Shown: positions 4,075 to 10,935, counted from the stretch's first letter. The stretch is 11,633 nt of DNA from Candidatus Hodarchaeota archaeon (GCA_016839815.1 JAEOTM010000126.1:1-11633), one strand, 5' to 3'. Notes: generated by a model not told the origin, from the sequence alone. Numbers and translations are program-made.

Positions 4075-4938
4075 CTAAATAACCGTTGGAAAAAGGATAA
4101 AGTACAAAATCCCATAAATCACACAAATTATCAGTGGATTAGATTTTACTGATCCAAGGGACTTGATAGCATAATATATCATCGCTACACTCCATATAAT
4201 GGCTACGATCATAATGATAGGAGAGAATACATCGAATGAGAGGCTAGTTATGATTTCTCTTTCCCAAAGGGAATTATAAACAACCTCTCCTCCTGGAGAG
4301 AATAAATAAAACAATCCTGCAATACTTTGGGTAAAAATCAAGGGAATTTGTGCCCATCCCACAATCGTAGCCATTTTTTTGAATTTACGCATATCTGAGG
4401 TGAGATCTGAGGCAAAAATCACATGCAAAATCCATAAAATGGCACTCATTAGGAACCAATTTAACAAAATTGCGAAAATTGAGGATATGGGTAACAAATA
4501 CTGATAAAAACCTTTGAATTCTTCTAGAGAAGCATCTTCAGCTCCCAGACCTAAAGGAATCGAATCAACGAACGATTCGGTGAATTGCATATCGAATTTG
4601 TTAAAAAAAATCAACAAAGCAACAGCAGTAATAAGGCCAATCACCAGATTAAGAATAAAAGGTTGAGAGAAATTTGGAGAGGAGGAAATTTGGGGCATTT
4701 CTTCTCTTGGGGCAGTTAAAGCACCACGAAAGTTTGTTAAAAATGCACGTCGTGGACTCTCTTCTACAGGTTCCGTAATTATATATGGTGCACCAACTTG
4801 GTGAGATGAAAAATCCTGAATTTTCGTTATTGGAGCTCCACAATAAGCACAAAATGCAGCATTTGATACCAATTCTTTACCACAATTACCACAGTATCTC
4901 ATAGTAGGGGAATTCTCGTTTTCCATACAATAAAGCAT
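4075..4938 (-). CDS. Zinc-ribbon + Yip1-like multi-pass membrane protein
   Basis: N-terminal YCGNCG..AAFCAYCG zinc ribbon. About five hydrophobic segments with Yip1-like patterns (ALTAPRE, FKKMATIVGWAQIP, IIWS..MIYYAIK). The start may be ATG at 4926. Confidence 0.75.
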   Translation of the reverse strand: MLYCMENENSPTMRYCGNCGKELVSNAAFCAYCGAPITKIQDFSSHQVGAPYIITEPVEESPRRAFLTNFRGALTAPREEMPQISSSPNFSQPFILNLVIGLITAVALLIFFNKFDMQFTESFVDSIPLGLGAEDASLEEFKGFYQYLLPISSIFAILLNWFLMSAILWILHVIFASDLTSDMRKFKKMATIVGWAQIPLIFTQSIAGLFYLFSPGGEVVYNSLWEREIITSLSFDVFSPIIMIVAIIWSVAMIYYAIKSLGSVKSNPLIICVIYGILYFILFPTVI

Positions 4939-5166
4939 CCTTATTGATCTATTGAAAACTTCTTCTTGTAATCTTCAATTTCCTAACATTAAGAAAAGGA
5001 TTGTTTTGTGGCAGTCAAAGAAGAATGAATATAGAGGATCATCACAATACAATATTCCTACTCGAATTATTTCTACAATATGAAATAGTTAGAATCTAGA
5101 TAAAAATTTCTAAGAAAGTAATTAACCAAATATTGAAAAAAGAAAAAATCTGACTATTTTCAACGT

Positions 5167-5484
5167 TTAATAGGATCTATCCTTTAGAACGACGATTGTG
5201 AATCCAGCAGCTTCGTCAGGGGTGATAATAATCTCTGATTGAGGCATTTCAACATAAACACTTTGTAATTTTCCATGATTCAAAGCATCGGAAACGCTCC
5301 GAACTTTCTTTACTAGGGATGCTACATGTGCTGAAACACGTTCCGCATCAGATTGTGGTAAATTACTTTGTAGGGGTAATCCGTCTTCATCGCAAACTAA
5401 AATACCTCGTACGCCTCGTCTTGCTGCCAGTCTTTTTATTGTATTTTGTAAAACTGAAGGAATGACATACTCTTCACCAGACAT
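5167..5484 (-). CDS. Roadblock/LC7 domain protein (dynein light chain roadblock-like)
   Basis: TIKRLAARRGVRGILVCDEDGLPLQS...EIIITPD matches the roadblock/LC7 pattern. An AGGTGA RBS lies in the 17-nt gap after the upstream paralog. Confidence 0.9.
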   Translation of the reverse strand: MSGEEYVIPSVLQNTIKRLAARRGVRGILVCDEDGLPLQSNLPQSDAERVSAHVASLVKKVRSVSDALNHGKLQSVYVEMPQSEIIITPDEAAGFTIVVLKDRSY

Positions 5485-5501
5485 TTTTCAATCACCTATT
5501 T

Positions 5502-5852
5502 TTACTTATCTTTTGAGGTGAGTGTCATTTGACTACTCTCTCGTTTTACTAATGCTATAATGATAATTTCAGAATCATAATCAGGTATTATCTCGACGTC
5601 ACCAACTTCTAATTCAAGTCGTATGCTTCGAGCAATCTCCTGGGAGATTTCTTTGGATATATATTTTACTTTCCCTACAAGTGAAGCAACATGTGCCGAA
5701 ACTCTCTCTGTATCTTCACCAGGAAGACTTGATTGTAATGGTAATCCATCAGTATCACTCAATACTGCTCCATACACTCCCTTATGTTTCCCGACGGATT
5801 CTATTACTTTTTCAAGAGCTTGATGTGATAAATAACCTGCACCTTGGGACAT
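5502..5852 (-). CDS. Roadblock/LC7 domain protein
   Basis: HKGVYGAVLSDTDGLPLQSSL...VEIIPD; clear paralog of 5167..5484. Confidence 0.9.
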   Translation of the reverse strand: MSQGAGYLSHQALEKVIESVGKHKGVYGAVLSDTDGLPLQSSLPGEDTERVSAHVASLVGKVKYISKEISQEIARSIRLELEVGDVEIIPDYDSEIIIIALVKRESSQMTLTSKDK

Positions 5853-6283
5853 TGTTAATCATTATCCAATCTACTAATCATTCCTTAAAACCTTTTGCTT
5901 TCAATCTCTTCTCAAATATATACTGTATTTTTAAATAAAAATGTGAGTTCACCTATTGCAACGATGATTGAAAATATATATTCTCACCAGCGACCGAGAA
6001 TAAGAATTACATCACCCTAATGGTTCAAAAAAATAATATATGATATTATAATCCTTCATATGATTATTTAAGTGTAGTATCGATGGATTATTCATGTTGG
6101 GTGAACCATATTTGTATCTGAAGTTCTCTAACAGTAGTAGACAACTTTTCACATCTGAAGCCAAGGAGGTATAGAATTTGTTTAAATATCCAAATAGCTT
6201 TCATAGGTGGATAATTTCCTCAGTTCCGGAAGCTCAATGCTTTTATTTGATCAATTTCAAAGCCGTCATAGGAGATTTATCTT

Positions 6284-6787
6284 TTGAATCCTTCACAAAA
6301 AAAAATTGATATCTTGGAAGAGATTAGTCTTCTTCTTGAGAAGAAATTAGGGGAAAAGCTAGACCCATTAGTGACTTCACTTAATCTAGTATGTGATCAA
6401 ATAAGTGCTATAGATCAAAGATTATCTCTTTTAGAAGGATCTACAGGTAAAGAACTTCCAACTGTGACATTTTCTGACCCAAAAAATCCGAGGCCAACCC
6501 CACAGGTCAATTTTGATAACAAGGATGATATGATGAAACGAGCCTATGACACTCTTTCGGAGTTTCCAATGTTGAGAAGAGCATACAATGTTCTTCTTGC
6601 TGAAGCCCCTCGGCCATTAACAACACAGGAAGTTGCCGATAAAATCGGTCGAAGTAGGAGTACAACCAGTCAATACCTGAATGAACTCCAAAAAATGAAA
6701 TTATTAGATAAAGAACATGGAGAAACACCTGATCAGTCTAGAAACATTGTTTTCAGACTTTCATATAGGAACCAGGTTGAGATTTAG
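6284..6787 (+). CDS. Coiled-coil + C-terminal winged HTH protein
   Basis: N-terminal heptad-like helix (LDPLVTSLNLVCDQISAIDQRLSLLE), a Pro-rich linker, then PLTTQEVADKIGRSRSTTSQYLNELQKMKLLDK HTH. GGAG precedes the TTG start. Confidence 0.8.
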   Translation: MNPSQKKIDILEEISLLLEKKLGEKLDPLVTSLNLVCDQISAIDQRLSLLEGSTGKELPTVTFSDPKNPRPTPQVNFDNKDDMMKRAYDTLSEFPMLRRAYNVLLAEAPRPLTTQEVADKIGRSRSTTSQYLNELQKMKLLDKEHGETPDQSRNIVFRLSYRNQVEI

Positions 6788-6813
6788 ACCGAGCTAAGAG
6801 AATATTGAGATTT

Positions 6814-7347
6814 TTAGCTAGTATATTCCAAGATATTATTGCCTAGTTTTTCGAAGGCTGTTTCGACTCCTTCTCCAGATTTTGCGCTAGTTTCAATAAA
6901 TGGAACACCAAGTCTCTCTGCTAGCTTCTTTCCTTCATCTGTTGAAACTGTTTCTGCACCTTCTTCACGTAAGTCTAATTTATTCGCCAGAAGGACAACT
7001 GGAACATTCTTTTCCCGTCCACAGTTTTTCCACATGTCATTGAGCCATTTTTCTACATTATCGAATGTTTGACGGCGTGTTACATCATAAACTACAATTC
7101 CACCGAAGATTTTGGTATAGTAAGCCTGTACGACATCTTTGAATAGTGGTTGGCCTGCTAAATCCCAGATTTGCCATCTAATTTGGGTTTCACCGATGGA
7201 TGTATCATGAAGGGCAAAATCTGCTCCCATTGTGCTCAAATAGTCAGTCTCAAATCCTTGACCTAAGTATCGTTTGCGAAGAGATGTCTTTCCTACAGCT
7301 CCATCGCCTGCCAAAACAATTTTCCATAAACGAACATCATCACTCAT
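6814..7347 (-). CDS. Rab-like small GTPase (Ras superfamily)
   Basis: G1 GDGAVGKTS, G2 YLSTMGADF, G3 WDLAGQ, G4 NKLD and G5 ETSAK. RabF-like QIW, YY and VYDVT are present. AGGTGA RBS. No C-terminal Cys. Confidence 0.95.
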   Translation of the reverse strand: MSDDVRLWKIVLAGDGAVGKTSLRKRYLGQGFETDYLSTMGADFALHDTSIGETQIRWQIWDLAGQPLFKDVVQAYYTKIFGGIVVYDVTRRQTFDNVEKWLNDMWKNCGREKNVPVVLLANKLDLREEGAETVSTDEGKKLAERLGVPFIETSAKSGEGVETAFEKLGNNILEYTS

Positions 7348-7374
7348 TTATTTCACCTTTTATCTTATTAAACT

Positions 7375-8121
7375 TTAACTAGGGATTTTTAATGTGATAC
7401 AGGTGTCACTTACCCATTGTGTGAAAGTAATTTCTCCTTTAAATATTCGATCAACATATATTCTATAATCTTCCGCTGCAACTTCGGTTGGGATAATCAA
7501 AAACGCATCCTTGTTTTCAATTGGTTGCAAACGAATCATAGGCTTCTCCACTCTAGAAGCATCATCAGCAGTGGCTAGTTCTAATTCTAAAAGAAATAAA
7601 AAGTCTCTTGCCTTGATATCATCAAATCCATATTTTATCATATTATTATCAGGTGCTAAATCAAGGAGTACTCTACTCCATTCACTGATCCAATATTCAT
7701 CAGTGAACCAATATTCTAAATACTCGTTTCGTTCAGCTCTGAGTTCACTTAATACAACCATATAGCGAATCATTCCTTCACGAACACGTTTCATCAGATC
7801 AAGCCCAGGCTTATCATAGAGTTCATTTAGCTTAGCCCTTTCCTTGCTTAGTATAACCATAACCTTGACTAATTCTTCTAATTGCTTATCTGAAGCGATA
7901 GGGACGTATTTTGATACTTTCTCAAGCCACTTGATGGTGGAATCGAGCTCTGGTTTACTCACTTCACTCCCACGAATTCTCCTTAGAATTTCTTGAACCA
8001 AACTCTTATTTTTAATAATTTTTTCGTAGTCCTGCGGAGGCACAACGCGACGCTCTCTAAGCATGTCTTCAACTTTCACGCTAGCGTAATCCGAGTGTTG
8101 TCTTTCCAACTCATTTTTCAC
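7375..8121 (-). CDS. Hypothetical, mostly alpha-helical soluble protein
   Basis: 248-codon ORF with protein-like composition, 27 nt upstream of the GTPase on the same strand. No family recognised. GTG start. Confidence 0.75.
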   Translation of the reverse strand: MKNELERQHSDYASVKVEDMLRERRVVPPQDYEKIIKNKSLVQEILRRIRGSEVSKPELDSTIKWLEKVSKYVPIASDKQLEELVKVMVILSKERAKLNELYDKPGLDLMKRVREGMIRYMVVLSELRAERNEYLEYWFTDEYWISEWSRVLLDLAPDNNMIKYGFDDIKARDFLFLLELELATADDASRVEKPMIRLQPIENKDAFLIIPTEVAAEDYRIYVDRIFKGEITFTQWVSDTCITLKIPS

Positions 8122-8264
8122 CTTATTTAAACACGTTTCAGAAAGTATGATTGTATTAAATCAGTTTAGACACTTCTTTCTTCTAGCACATATATATCCT
8201 CTGATGCCACTTGCATAAAGTACCCTCTTGAGCTTCAGAAGTGAAAAAAATACGCTTTCCCTTC

Positions 8265-9956
8265 TTATTCAATGTTCGGAGTGACTTTACGTACATATCC
8301 TCTTCTAGTTAATTCTTCCAGCACCTCTAACTCAACGTTTTGATCACGAAAAGTGAATTTTGACGCTGATTCGGGGGTAAGAGTTTTTGATGCAAAAAGT
8401 GCTCTAGCTGTTGGACGTAGCTTCTCAGGAAGGTCAAGTAAACCCAGAGCATCAAAACCTTGTATTTGTACATATTTTGGAGGTTCTGTACAAGAACAAA
8501 GAGATCTTCCTGTTTCTTCTTCTATAGCAAGTTTGTTAGATCTAGGATTTATTCCCAAATTCAAGAGGAATTCATGTCTCTGGTTATGAGAGGTGGTAAA
8601 TTCGTAATAAAGTAGATGATGAATGGATACATCTGCAATATTTTCTGTAACATAGTTTTGAAAAGTTTCCTCTGGATCTATTCTGAGTTGGTCGCTATTT
8701 TCACGAAAATTCAGTATATTTTCTCGTAATTGAGAATTCACTGTGTTTATTTCAAAGATCCAATCCTCAAAGACAGAATCCACCAAGTTTTTTGCGTCTG
8801 CAAATCCCCCGATTTGTCCAGTTTCATTAAAATCAATTAATGCTTTCTTAAATTCGGTCTCAAAGCGATTAGTAAAGTTCAGTAATAAGTTTGAAAGAGT
8901 CTCGTCTTCTTTAGTACTATAAAGAATCCCTATTATATTCTTTCCATACTGGAAATCAATATAGGAATTTCCATTATCTATTCCTAATAAATCTCCCCGT
9001 CTACCAGCCGTTTCAGAAATCATATGAGCAATACTACTCAAGGCAGCCGTAATCAAGGCAGGGTTCTTCATCTCATCCTCAGCTTTGCCAAAAAAGTGAT
9101 AATACATTGTTGTTCCAGAGTACCTATCAGTCATAAACAATGCTTGAGGAGAAATTACTGATTTAGGGTCCAATAAACCCAGATTTCGGATTTCGACCGC
9201 ATTAGTTAACTTCCTAATGAAATCATAAAATATATTATTCACTCGAGAGAGTGGATTCTCTAATCCAAACACTCCTTGGTCTGTAAAATTATGAATATCC
9301 TGAATCCAAGGGATTACATAAAAGATAGGCCCACGTACTTTATTCTCGAGCTTTTTCAAAAATACATCGATCTTTTCTAATATCATGGGAGGATTTACCA
9401 TGTTTACGATTAATAATGTTGGAACGGTAAGAAAGTGAAAGAAGTTTTGGATTGAGGACCTAGTTAAGCTAATAGAGGGGTGCTTATCTGTTGAGATAAA
9501 CCAGACCATTTCACTTTCCAGTAAGGTTGCCATTGTAATCGAATTTTCTTCTAATGTTGTTGGGATGATAAATATTAATATATCTATGATGTCTTTAAAA
9601 AATAAAGAGTTCACTCGATGTCTAATCTTTCCTGGTAAGCCACTTTCATTTATCTGACAACCTGCAGATGGCAGTACTCTAACAAAAGAGCCTTGTTGTT
9701 CTTCTTCATGCAATAGTAGAGATTCATTTACGAGAATATCATCTGAAATTTCTGTAATGAACTCTGAACTACTGAAATGTGACTTGCCATACTTTGAAAG
9801 ACTATACCGTAATTTTTCTGTTAACGAAAAATCAACAATTAGGATTCTAGTTCCGGGATTTGATTTTGCATATGATAAGAAAACATTTAAGGCGAGAGTT
9901 TGCTTCCCAACACTTGAAGTTCGTGAATAAATGCTAATTACTTTTGGAAATTCCAT
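8265..9956 (-). CDS. Multidomain protein: degenerate MinD/ParA-type NTPase fold + longin-like domain + C-terminal wHTH
   Basis: aa 5-250: KVISIYSRTSSVGKQT, ILIVDF, VLPS, NMV and VIPW, in ParA/MinD order. aa 270-397: LFMTDRYSG..NPALITAALSSI..FTNRFETEF..F, an Asgard-type longin pattern. aa 505-558: LT..R..LEELTRRGYVRK wHTH. Confidence 0.7.
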   Translation of the reverse strand: MEFPKVISIYSRTSSVGKQTLALNVFLSYAKSNPGTRILIVDFSLTEKLRYSLSKYGKSHFSSSEFITEISDDILVNESLLLHEEEQQGSFVRVLPSAGCQINESGLPGKIRHRVNSLFFKDIIDILIFIIPTTLEENSITMATLLESEMVWFISTDKHPSISLTRSSIQNFFHFLTVPTLLIVNMVNPPMILEKIDVFLKKLENKVRGPIFYVIPWIQDIHNFTDQGVFGLENPLSRVNNIFYDFIRKLTNAVEIRNLGLLDPKSVISPQALFMTDRYSGTTMYYHFFGKAEDEMKNPALITAALSSIAHMISETAGRRGDLLGIDNGNSYIDFQYGKNIIGILYSTKEDETLSNLLLNFTNRFETEFKKALIDFNETGQIGGFADAKNLVDSVFEDWIFEINTVNSQLRENILNFRENSDQLRIDPEETFQNYVTENIADVSIHHLLYYEFTTSHNQRHEFLLNLGINPRSNKLAIEEETGRSLCSCTEPPKYVQIQGFDALGLLDLPEKLRPTARALFASKTLTPESASKFTFRDQNVELEVLEELTRRGYVRKVTPNIE

Positions 9957-10089: not shown

Positions 10090-10935
10090 TTAATATTTGT
10101 AGAATCCTTCTCCTGATTTGCGCCCAATTTTTCCAGCACGGACCATTTTCCTCAAAAGAGGAGCTGCTTGAAATTTTACTCCTAATTCGTCCTTAAGATA
10201 ATCTAAAATATGAAGTATGGTATCTAAGCCTATTAAATCAGCTAAAACCAATGGACCCATTGGGTGATCCAAACCAAACTTAATAGATTTATCAATTTCT
10301 TCAGGTGTTCCCAGACCATCTTGTAGCATATAAACCCCTTCATTTATAACAGCAGAAACAAGACGAGTTGTAGTAAAACAAGGTAAATCGTTAATTAAAA
10401 CAGTTTCTTTTCCAATTTTTTTGCAATAAGCCAAAGATTGATCACACGTCTCATCAGATATTCTCTCCCCTTTGATAACTTCTACAAGTTTCATCATTGA
10501 AACAGGATTAAAAAAATGCAAGCCAATAAATCTTTTTTGGCGTTTTTCTGGAAGTTCAGACGCTAAATCAGTGATACTAATAGCAGATGTATTCGAAGCG
10601 AAAATACATTCATTAGAGCAGATAGAATCTAATTTGCTATAAGTGGCCTTCTTAAGGGCGATATATTCAGGAATTGTTTCAATAATTAACTCACTTGGCT
10701 TAAAATCCTTTAAATCAAGAGAAGGAGAAATTCGACCCATGATCTGTGGAATTTCGTCATCAGATAATTTGTTTTTCTTAACCATACGCGTTAGGGATTT
10801 CTTAATTTCCTTCTAACCGTGATCTATAAATTTTTGATCAATATCGTATAAAATTATGTCGTAACCTGCAATTGCAGATACTTGAGCTATTCCATTCCCC
10901 ATTATTCCAGCACCTAATACTCCAATTGTCTTCAT
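10090..10935 (-). pseudogene. hbd: 3-hydroxybutyryl/3-hydroxyacyl-CoA dehydrogenase interrupted by an in-frame TAG at codon 41
   Basis: ATG at 10935 gives MKTIGVLGAGIMGNGIAQV...DHG*KEIKKSLTRMVKK, in frame with the 231-aa ORF (ASNTS, GLHFFNP, HPMGPL, GRKSGEGFY). The TAG is at 10813-10815. The full length would be 281 aa. Confidence 0.8.

Follow-up and report, generated by a model that had tools for sequence, protein, structure and literature searches.

A gene neighbourhood of a Rab-like GTPase, a roadblock pair and a predicted longin fusion conserved across one genus of Hodarchaeales

Protein families of the kinds discussed here regulate small GTPases elsewhere, and several well-described systems invite comparison. 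MglA-MglB pairs a Ras-like GTPase of bacteria with a GAP formed by a roadblock dimer; in the Ragulator-Rag system, LAMTOR roadblock heterodimers scaffold GTPases, and FLCN-FNIP are longin proteins; the TRAPP core, Mon1-Ccz1 and Fuzzy-Inturned/CPLANE are longin-platform Rab exchange factors; and eukaryotic Yip1/YIPF membrane proteins are Rab/Ypt interactors, YknW being a prokaryotic Yip1-domain protein that works with an ABC exporter. We know of no N-terminal zinc ribbon as a feature of eukaryotic Yip1.

For Asgard archaea, the passages of Liu et al. (10.1101/2020.10.19.343400) drawn on here describe a putative operon of a LAMTOR1-like roadblock gene, a Rab-like GTPase gene and a gene for a DENN-domain protein, put forward as a module of GTPase regulators on the basis of its neighbourhood alone, and those of Tran et al. 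(2024) place the small GTPase genes of MK-D1 generally outside operons with roadblock or longin genes. The locus analyzed here (positions 4075..9956 of the window, a stretch of 11,633 nt from a Candidatus Hodarchaeota archaeon, GCA_016839815.1 JAEOTM010000126.1:1-11633) is a lineage-specific variant of the known Asgard GTPase/roadblock/longin neighbourhoods and supplies candidate Rab-like GTPase regulators for testing.

Seven genes and their products

An ORF check recovered all seven genes where an earlier note on this DNA had placed them, six on the - strand and only wHTH167 on the + strand, and the six domain calls of that note held as well: the GTPase, the two roadblocks, Yip1 and wHTH by Pfam, and P563 by a structural model. 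The gaps it had given, 143 nt between P563 and orph248 and 228 nt between RoblB and the Yip1 gene, were also reproduced; RoblB lies 17 nt downstream of RoblA, the Rab gene and wHTH167 converge with 26 nt between them, and wHTH167 and RoblA diverge across 431 nt. This layout implies at least three transcription units, in line with the view already taken that the stretch is not one operon. The clustering exceeds chance within the source genome, since there are 61 Ras-family, 11 roadblock and only 2 Yip1 matches in its 4.24 Mb, although the same 61 and 11 matches make the pairing of a particular GTPase with particular roadblocks by proximity uncertain.

The largest product, P563 (8265..9956, - strand; 563 aa), consists in its AlphaFold2 model (pLDDT 77.4) of a degenerate ParA/MinD fold (residues ~1-259), a longin domain (~269-400), a helical region, in which H457, H461, C487 and C489 are invariant, and a winged helix (~494-558). 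The fusion of MinD-like and longin domains that had been proposed is thereby recovered at the level of the model: residues 1-259 superpose on the ParA/MinD chain 8ray_A at VIA Z 20.6 (rmsd 3.5, 236 aligned) and on MinD 4v02_A at Z 20.1, with a Foldseek match of P563 to ParA 3ea0_A (E 3.1e-09), and residues 269-400 superpose on nine longin chains at VIA Z 11.1-12.7, including CPLANE 7q3d_C (Z 12.7, rmsd 3.2, 127 aligned), TRAPP 3cue_A (“TRAPP subassembly activating the Rab Ypt1p”; Z 12.7), and Sec22 and VAMP7 (Z 12.6). The modelled elements of the latter domain (E270-277, E283-288, H299-316, E325-327, E332-337, E341-347, H352-368 and H370-379) run beta-beta-alpha-beta-beta-beta-alpha-alpha, as predicted for a longin fold superposable on solved longins. 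Since SNARE and adaptor-sigma longins match equally well (Z 11.3-12.6), this fold is no pointer to exchange activity, and the atlas lead for the domain is to clusters named roadblock and adaptor small chain (0.86). A Pfam search of P563 detected neither the MinD-like nor the longin domain, giving only a sub-threshold CbiA match (0.015); a Sybindin match (0.0083) appeared in one of the 17 aligned relatives, the longin domain of the source genome having none in Pfam, and the PDB profile search with the longin domain returned no match below E 0.08.

The SIMIBI deviant Walker A ATPases have the consensus KGGxGK[ST], with its signature lysine, plus a Walker B aspartate. The P-loop of P563 reads SRTSSVGKQT in the source genome and xxxxxxGK[KQRS]T across the 18-sequence alignment, with neither the signature lysine nor the glycines, and its Walker B strand ends ..IFIIP (..FIIP across the alignment), with P132 invariant; P563 was accordingly rejected as a canonical member of that class, having its fold and not its Walker A/B motifs. 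P563 belongs to a narrow family, with 8 representatives at E<1e-30 in a set of 1.84 billion, and the homologue search found the ParA-longin-wHTH architecture only in Hodarchaeales-type sequences.

The next gene, orph248 (7375..8121, - strand; 248 aa), encodes a helical protein with a winged-helix-looking C-terminal half (model pLDDT 87.9, pTM 0.86), for which Pfam and NCBIfam gave no match, Foldseek nothing at E<=0.001, and VIA a best Z of 7.9 (winged-helix proteins), no better than noise. The gene is genuine, conserved and present in multiple copies, and it belongs to no known family; it has 114 homologue clusters, the named ones of which are labelled as Hodarchaeales/Heimdall-type MAGs, and to this extent its earlier description as an orphan stands. 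It is, however, more than a passive interruption, having the same orientation as the Rab gene and preceding it by 27 nt. It occupies its site in half of the 16 genus loci and is missing from the other 8, and none of its 9 paralogous copies, from three genomes, lies directly beside a GTPase gene (one has such a gene ~2.9 kb off, on the opposite strand).

The GTPase itself (6814..7347, - strand; 177 aa) is Rab-like (Pfam Ras 4.7e-47; 160 bits, cut-off 21.6), its best solved relative being the Thorarchaeota Rab 7ezb (1.2e-39), followed by Rab1A, Rab11A, Rab8A, Ypt and Sec4. The G1-G5 motifs are intact, with GDGAVGKT, T39, WDLAGQ, NKxD and ETSAK invariant in all 15 Rab-like orthologues, which also keep the catalytic Gln of DxxGQ. 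The C-terminal tail has no cysteine in any of these 15, as had been claimed of a GTPase devoid of a lipid anchor, and the assignment as a eukaryotic Rab proper, with a prenylation cysteine motif, fails for that reason; in the part of the Thor-Rab paper used here, the cysteine-containing extension of Rabs is considered a likely later addition.

On the opposite strand, wHTH167 (6284..6787, +) combines an N-terminal helical part with an IclR/MarR-type winged helix (Pfam HTH_IclR 5.2e-08, MarR_2 3.7e-06) and is found at the same position in 15 of the 16 genus loci, at 26-69% identity. The divergent spacer between it and RoblA (5853..6283) contains only short palindromes, and an alignment of four close genomes shows ~75 nt beside the RoblA start and a block beside wHTH167 to be nearly invariant. 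RoblA (5502..5852, - strand; 116 aa) and RoblB (5167..5484, - strand; 105 aa) are short roadblock/LC7 proteins (Pfam Robl_LC7 4.6e-17 for RoblB and 6.9e-13 for RoblA; 62.0 and 48.6 bits, cut-off 23) sharing 40% identity with each other and conserved at 82-100% across the genus. Their LAMTOR5 matches are sub-threshold (24.6 and 24.0 bits, cut-off 27; 4.2e-05 for RoblA), and their best solved relatives are 7f8f_A (4.2e-10 for RoblA, 3.2e-09 for RoblB) and then dynein light chain roadblock for RoblA and DYNLRB1 (4.2e-08) for RoblB. The residual distance correlation between the two is 0.69, by a weak method.

Conservation of the neighbourhood and its possible explanations

Within the genus, all 16 assessable loci have the Rab gene downstream of P563, RoblA is kept in 16 of 16 as well, and RoblB, and with it the roadblock pair, in 15 of 15; because the housekeeping flanks (GCH, RibD_C and Maf) are conserved across the genus too, this order amounts to block synteny that does not single out the cluster. 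The sister family, sampled as two genomes (G022 and G023) that are 80-85% complete and in short contigs, has the three units on different contigs with unrelated neighbours: a radical-SAM-like gene follows the P563 homologue, the Rab orthologue sits beside proteasome/exosome genes or a TPR gene, and a third contig carries the roadblock pair. Just two pairs stay together in this family, the RoblA-RoblB tandem in both genomes and the orphan-Rab pair in G022, where the orph248 homologue (E 2.4e-23) and the start of the reciprocal-best-hit Rab orthologue share 4 nt. A longin-like protein is encoded directly upstream of RoblA in G022; downstream of RoblB comes another gene within 357 nt in the same genome and, in G023, a gene for a 229-aa membrane protein that matches no Pfam family and for which a search of 83 genomes of the class gave no homologue. 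As the parts lie apart in the sister family, synteny falls short of demonstrating that they work together, and the earlier note's claim of a single Rab switch module, drawn from gene neighbourhood alone, is partly supported: its parts list stands, and the refuting outcome it had named, a neighbourhood not conserved among relatives, is half borne out, the order being kept in every assessable genus locus and the parts being scattered in the two genomes of the sister family.

The explanation we tentatively prefer, and to which we would give slightly less than an even chance, is that of a genus-wide conserved small-GTPase-signalling neighbourhood of three separately inherited units, in which the Rab is handled by platform partners from that neighbourhood. 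The first unit is P563, a ParA/MinD fold minus its ATP-hydrolysis residues with a longin domain, a 2His-2Cys helical part and a winged helix; the second is orph248 and the intact, anchor-less Rab-like GTPase, probably on one transcript; and the third is the wHTH regulator gene divergent from a RoblA-RoblB operon, and then the zinc-ribbon Yip1 gene. RoblA and RoblB, of the short LC7/LAMTOR4-5 type, would most probably pair as a heterodimer. The likeliest working link would be the handling of the Rab-like GTPase by platform-type partners of its own neighbourhood, with the P563 longin domain perhaps acting as in TRAPP, Mon1-Ccz1 or CPLANE, and the roadblock heterodimer as in MglB or Ragulator. 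The analysis shows folds, motifs and the gene order with its range; from these we infer the contacts among these proteins, which partner might activate and which inactivate the GTPase, and any role that Yip1 or the winged helices might play.

Historical juxtaposition, which we consider possible but rather doubtful, would explain the same gene order by three independent units from very large paralogous families that came to lie together by chance in the ancestor of one genus and were kept by ordinary block synteny, the Rab having its partners elsewhere and the roadblock pair scaffolding something else, like dynein LC7 or LAMTOR4/5. The dispersal in both sister-family genomes, the equally syntenic flanks and the sheer number of GTPase and roadblock matches in the genome agree with it, as do the lack of residual distance correlation of the Rab with P563, RoblA, RoblB and Yip1 (-0.05 to 0.10), the roadblocks being nearest the dynein-light-chain type, with no MglB-named chain at E<=0.01 in their solved-structure searches, and the statement, in the portion of Liu et al. 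considered here, that most Asgard ESP genes lie outside conserved neighbourhoods. A GTPase, two of the 11 roadblocks, one of the 2 Yip1 genes and a longin within 6 kb are, however, unlikely under independent placement, and the sister family again has orph248 next to Rab and a longin next to RoblA-RoblB.

The weakest link in the proposed module is Yip1. ZnR-Yip1 (4075..4938, - strand) has a zinc ribbon (residues 15-37; Zn_Ribbon_1 8.4e-08) before its multi-pass Yip1-domain membrane part (residues 72-282; Pfam Yip1 8.9e-16, 58.7 bits against a cut-off of 28.6), and a weak NCBIfam YknW_fam match (1.2e-05) far under its cut-off. Of the 14 genus loci that could be assessed, 13 carry it (28-54% identity), and one species (L023; G019) lacks it there; the gene evolves about five times as fast as the roadblocks do. 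The domain is widespread: of 14 control genomes, 7 have it, including those of E. coli and B. subtilis, and the family is placed in all three domains of life in the part of 10.64898/2026.10.28.762692 cited here. Outside the order, across Yip1-family loci of five other families of the class, a GTPase lay within 6 kb in 1 of 20 and a roadblock in none of the 20. Both Yip1-domain genes of the source genome are <2 kb from a Ras-family GTPase gene, the second ZnR-Yip1 gene being 1.4 kb from another GTPase, inside an ESCRT-ubiquitin cluster, and in G022 the homologues of that pair are 1.5 kb apart. The five-part Rab switch originally envisaged, with P563 as GEF, the roadblocks as GAP, Yip1 as receptor for the anchor-less Rab and a winged-helix transcriptional output, is very improbable, for although each of the five kinds of part is there and in the same orientation, the Rab has no lipid anchor and the second Yip1-GTPase pairing recurs in G022, Yip1 is fast-evolving and was lost from the locus in one species, other genes follow RoblB in G022 and G023, the Yip1-GTPase linkage does not extend outside the order, and at least three transcription units are involved.

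Comparison with known systems

Like the operon in the cited passages of Liu et al., the locus places a GTPase of Rab-like rather than Rag-like type next to genes of the roadblock superfamily and longin-related ones. It differs from that description in having two tandem short LC7-type roadblocks in place of one LAMTOR1-like gene, in the fusion of the longin domain to a degenerate ParA/MinD fold and a winged helix, in the extra Yip1 gene and orph248, and in its range (one genus, as opposed to “most Asgard”); none of the seven proteins has a DENN-family Pfam match at E<=0.1, and no DENN chain is among the structural matches listed for the P563 and orph248 models. As in MglA-MglB, roadblock genes are found close to that of a small GTPase, for which a dimer of roadblocks could plausibly serve as platform, whereas here the two roadblocks are different from each other, short and nearest dynein-type LC7, and the GTPase, a Rab-like one that retains the Gln of DxxGQ, is 0.96 kb away from them, with an opposite-strand wHTH gene between, and not co-transcribed.

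With Ragulator-Rag and FLCN-FNIP, the locus shares putatively heterodimeric short roadblocks, a longin protein and a membrane protein, but no LAMTOR1-like anchor was identified here, and Rag-style docking is impossible because the GTPase has no C-terminal roadblock domain. The P563 longin domain, as modelled, superposes on the TRAPP and CPLANE longin subunits of longin-platform Rab exchange factors (Z 12.7 for both); P563 differs from these systems in having one longin domain per chain. The likeness to Yip1/YIPF proteins and YknW, finally, lies in the Yip1 domain of ZnR-Yip1, which scores well over the Pfam cut-off.

Gene order and transcription units

All seven open reading frames that an earlier note on this DNA had placed within 4075-9956 are present there, only one of them, encoding the 167-aa winged-helix protein wHTH167 (6284-6787), being on the forward strand. 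The six on the reverse strand encode, in their own reading direction, a 563-aa ParA/MinD-fold, longin and winged-helix protein (P563, 8265-9956), a 248-aa protein (orph248, 7375-8121), a 177-aa Rab-like small GTPase (6814-7347), two roadblock/LC7 proteins of 116 and 105 aa (RoblA, 5502-5852, and RoblB, 5167-5484) and a membrane protein with a zinc ribbon and a Yip1 domain (ZnR-Yip1, 4075-4938). Housekeeping genes make up the flanks (Maf, beta-eliminating lyase, RibD_C, 3-hydroxyacyl-CoA dehydrogenase and GTP cyclohydrolase FolE2). The window makes up an entire contig (C89) of a genome that comprises 4.24 Mb in 206 contigs and is 89.5% complete. Where homologous proteins and loci have a named source, the organism is labelled Hodarchaeales, Hodarchaeota or Heimdallarchaeota, in line with an Asgard archaeon of the Heimdall group.

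The genes of orph248 and the GTPase are separated by 27 nt and those of RoblA and RoblB by 17 nt, the gaps from P563 to orph248 and from RoblB to ZnR-Yip1 amount to 143 and 228 nt, respectively, and the wHTH167 gene converges with the GTPase gene at a distance of 26 nt while diverging from RoblA across a 431-nt spacer. This spacing suggests at least three or four transcription units, and the view already expressed in the earlier note, that the two larger gaps and the opposing wHTH gene speak against a single operon, stands. Within the divergent spacer, the approximately 75 nt preceding the RoblA start (5853-5930) and a block at about 6200-6283 beside wHTH167 are nearly invariant in four genomes, with a variable middle, and probably represent promoter or leader sequence. 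The wHTH open reading frame reaches farther upstream in three relatives than it does in the window. On the other side of P563, the 3-hydroxyacyl-CoA dehydrogenase reading frame (10090-10785) begins at position 50 of the 3HCDH_N profile, the start of the NAD-binding domain thus being missing, and this gene, situated between P563 and the GTP cyclohydrolase gene, is full, partial or absent among the loci of the genus.

The encoded proteins

No usable Pfam match was obtained for P563, and its architecture was read from an AlphaFold2 model built from 18 sequences (pLDDT 77.4), which bears out both the MinD-like and the longin assignments made previously: residues 1-259 adopt a ParA/MinD fold (Z 20.6; Foldseek 3.1e-09), and residues 269-400 a longin fold (Z 12.7 both to a subunit of CPLANE and to one of TRAPP) that also matches the Sec22 and VAMP7 longins (Z 12.6) and the small chains of adaptor/COPI complexes (Z 11.1-11.6), followed by helices and then a small winged helix. 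ParA/MinD proteins are characterized by a P-loop with a signature lysine and glycines and by a Walker B aspartate. As the P563 alignment lacks that lysine and those glycines, and has the aspartate substituted, the ATPase is probably dead; H457, H461, C487 and C489 are, at the same time, invariant in the family alignment. With 8 representatives at E<1e-30 among 1.84 billion, the family is a very narrow one, and when one of its distant homologues (P0005, which, like P0006 and P0007, shows 28-29% identity) served as the query, only loci of the genus were retrieved from genome contigs and a single genus-like contig from metagenome contigs. The longin module (residues 262-400) recurs C-terminally in multi-pass membrane and CBS-domain proteins (P0010-P0018), both in the window genome (C101:39172-40863 and C149:55398-57968) and in metagenomic relatives; the other proteins of the window genome that share it were rejected as P563-like parts, being membrane proteins with no ParA part and no GTPase neighbours.

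The Rab-like GTPase (Pfam Ras, 4.7e-47) has a Thorarchaeota Rab (7ezb, 1.2e-39) as its nearest solved relative, with eukaryotic Rab1, Rab11 and Rab8 coming next; its nearest paralogues in the window genome (C66:53189, C20:15221 and C176:19515) are 46-48% identical to it. Its nucleotide-binding motifs, including the Gln of DxxGQ, are invariant in 15 orthologues, and a C-terminal cysteine is absent in all of them. RoblA and RoblB, which are 40% identical, both pass Pfam Robl_LC7, and their nearest solved relatives are 7f8f_A, which bears no label beyond that of a Robl_LC7 protein, and the dynein light chain roadblock, no MglB-named chain appearing at E<=0.01 among their solved-structure matches. 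Their shortness and these matches point to the type termed “RBLC7”, which lacks the C-terminal helix in the accessible text of Tran et al. 2024. A second roadblock, Ras-family GTPase and roadblock trio lies on one strand elsewhere in the genome (G000:C122:26307-28268, as seen in coordinate lists only), on a contig that carries three further GTPase matches.

The protein previously called an orphan does belong to no known family, but it is a real conserved gene with 114 homologue clusters, a confidently modelled product (pLDDT 87.9) and 67-90% identity where present. No clear fold match was found for it (Atlas best 0.81; Foldseek best E 0.18), the best VIA hits, to winged-helix proteins (Z 7.9), being within the noise according to the tool’s own notes. 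The family is multi-copy, with two members in the window genome (one of them at C162:31907-32653) and three in each of three genus genomes that have no orph248 at the Rab site; none of the nine copies in those three genomes is directly beside a GTPase gene, and one has such a gene about 2.9 kb off on the opposite strand. Four of five paralogue loci examined (C162:31907-32653, L142, L144, L146 and L148 among the paralogue loci) adjoin genes for Opp/Dpp-type peptide ABC transporters (SBP_bac_5, ABC_tran+oligo_HPY), the L148 copy following, in the same orientation, two genes for transporter ATPases. With paralogues residing away from GTPases and beside transporter genes, orph248 is not an obligate GTPase partner.

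Conservation within the genus and beyond

Full-length P563 is encoded in 19 of 21 genomes of the genus, the window’s own left out. The apparent absence of the cluster from two genomes was discounted: in G002 both flanking genes are missing too, so that the region is probably unassembled, and a junction interrupts the RoblA gene of G006. Seventeen genus loci and one from the sister family were fetched, and a gene was counted only where the contig reaches its position: the Rab gene follows P563 in 16/16 genus loci, with orph248 in between in 8/16, wHTH167 is present in 15/16, RoblA in 16/16 and RoblB in 15/15, and ZnR-Yip1 follows RoblB in 13/14, the exception being L023 of genome G019, in which RibD_C abuts RoblB. 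The GTP cyclohydrolase gene on one side and RibD_C, a 70-aa gene, Maf and a 90-aa HTH gene on the other are just as syntenic, and genus conservation, being block synteny, therefore cannot single out the cluster. Identity to the window ranges from 82-100% for the roadblocks, 76-89% for Rab and 55-88% for P563 to 26-69% for wHTH167 and 28-54% for ZnR-Yip1. When pairwise distances among 14 genus taxa were corrected by regression for the mean across five flanking genes, the residuals of RoblA and RoblB correlated at 0.69, in a set of related taxa where pairs are non-independent and slow genes intercorrelate, and those of Rab with every neighbour at about zero; the outcome of this weak method fits a roadblock heterodimer and lends no support to a Rab contact.

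The class sample encompassed 83 genomes of seven families, the sister family being represented by two genomes (80-85% complete, 760-860 contigs). Among the 83, the only roadblock orthologues beyond the genus (~54%) occur in the sister family, and the other families have one distant roadblock (32-38%), which in some genera lies beside a different GTPase. In G022, the Rab orthologue is a reciprocal best hit (206 vs 180 bits); an orph248 homologue of 196 aa (E 2.4e-23) lies upstream and overlaps it by 4 nt, and proteasome and exosome genes come after it. Upstream of RoblA-RoblB in G022 is a protein of 256 aa with an N-terminal part similar to the longin domain of P563 (hhalign E 5.6e-04, probability 30%), and downstream a further gene is present in the 357 nt covered. 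In G023, a radical-SAM-like gene comes after the P563 homologue (27% identity), the neighbours of the reciprocal-type Rab orthologue (55%) are a TPR protein and small ORFs, and RoblA-RoblB precede a 229-aa multi-pass membrane protein. This last could not be shown to resemble Yip1 (no Pfam match; hhalign probability 2% to the ZnR-Yip1 alignment), the W-x3-P spacing that it shares by eye being discounted as evidence of Yip1 kinship, and it has no homologue in the 83 class genomes.

As these layouts demonstrate, the RoblA-RoblB and orph248-Rab pairs recur in the sister family, the longin-roadblock pairing perhaps does as well, and the six-kilobase assembly is not kept beyond the genus. Of the adjacencies that involve the GTPase, the tight orph248-Rab coupling, seen in two families, has the best support. 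The synteny comparison called for in the earlier note has thus found the order kept across the genus but the cluster broken up in both sister-family genomes.

The Yip1 link and the reading of the locus

ZnR-Yip1 combines its zinc ribbon with a Yip1 domain recognized at 58.7 bits. Only two Yip1-domain genes exist in the window genome, both <=2 kb from a Ras-family gene; the second, also of the zinc-ribbon type (G000:C135:21999-37640, L171), is located inside an ESCRT-ubiquitin cluster (Snf7 x2, EAP30, Vps28, UEV/E2, ThiF-type E1, ubiquitin, E2 and an Arf-like GTPase), at a distance of 1.4 kb from a GTPase of 410 aa whose N-terminus is extended by 225 aa. Homologues of this Yip1 gene and this GTPase are 1.5 kb apart in G022 (L138), and the 5.9-kb contig carrying the G023 homologue of the Yip1 gene has no GTPase. 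Outside the order, 20 chosen Yip1-family loci (17 genomes, 11 genera, 5 other families) were scanned for <=6 kb on each side, using HMMs built from the window genome’s own GTPases and roadblocks, with which both were recovered in control loci: a GTPase was near one of the 20, and a roadblock near none. Of 14 control genomes without Rabs, 7 likewise carry the Yip1 domain, which is present, according to the accessible text of a preprint (10.64898/2026.10.28.762692), in each of life's three domains. The beyond-genus matches of a ZnR-Yip1 alignment search were rejected as bacterial zinc-ribbon proteins keyed on the ribbon (Yip1 domain in 0/5 checked).

The single Rab module proposed at the outset is partly supported: it keeps its gene set and its order within the genus, but its units lie apart in the sister family, and the Yip1 link is its weakest. 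The reading tentatively preferred, at somewhat short of even chances, is that three GTPase-signalling units, each inherited separately, form a lineage-specific neighbourhood in which the longin and roadblock platforms nearby would most plausibly serve the Rab-like protein; the pairs recurring in the sister family are consistent with it. That the units are merely neighbours is the main rival and not much less probable, a reading with which the equally syntenic housekeeping flanks and the flat Rab co-variation agree, and the orph248-Rab coupling in two families does not. A full five-part switch with Yip1 as the receptor, to which the proximity of both Yip1 genes of the window genome to Ras-family genes would be congenial, is unlikely given the scan outside the order. 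Least probable of all, and a long shot by any measure, is an archaeal counterpart of Ragulator/folliculin logic, in which a LAMTOR4/5-like heterodimer and a longin protein dimerised via its dead ParA part would set the nucleotide state of the soluble Rab-like protein at a Yip1-type membrane protein, readout would fall to winged-helix proteins (wHTH167, orph248 and the C-terminus of P563), and the switch would, judging by the orph248 paralogues beside peptide importers, be tied to peptide or amino-acid supply.

Asgard genomes encode dozens of small GTPases along with roadblock and longin proteins, almost none of which can be matched to each other, because their genes are rarely neighbours: in MK-D1, according to the accessible text of Tran et al. 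2024 (where structures of Thor-Rab and Asgard roadblocks were also solved), GTPase genes do not, in general, share operons with genes for roadblock, longin or TRAPPC3 proteins. Within 6 kb, the neighbourhood of separately inherited units preferred here brings together a Rab-like GTPase lacking an anchor and four defined candidates for its partners, among them two undescribed proteins, one of ParA-longin-winged-helix architecture and one of 248 aa that is probably transcribed together with the GTPase. Should even a single pair bind, one of the rare matches between a GTPase and its regulator would become available for the question of how Rab regulation began, in an order, Hodarchaeales, that Eme et al. 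2023 are said to have placed closest to eukaryotes; if no pair binds, the locus would caution against reading modules from ESP-rich neighbourhoods. No description of this gene combination was found in the accessible portions of the Asgard GTPase/roadblock/longin/Yip1/ParA literature, the supplements of which (e.g., the asCOG tables of Liu et al.) may list the families. In the accessible text of Liu et al. (10.1101/2020.10.19.343400), most ESP genes lie outside conserved neighbourhoods, and a putative operon that is conserved across most of the Asgard archaea combines genes for a roadblock protein of LAMTOR1-like type, for a Rab-like GTPase and for a protein with a DENN domain. The present locus is a variant of this known kind of Asgard neighbourhood, and its use is mainly that of a defined candidate set.
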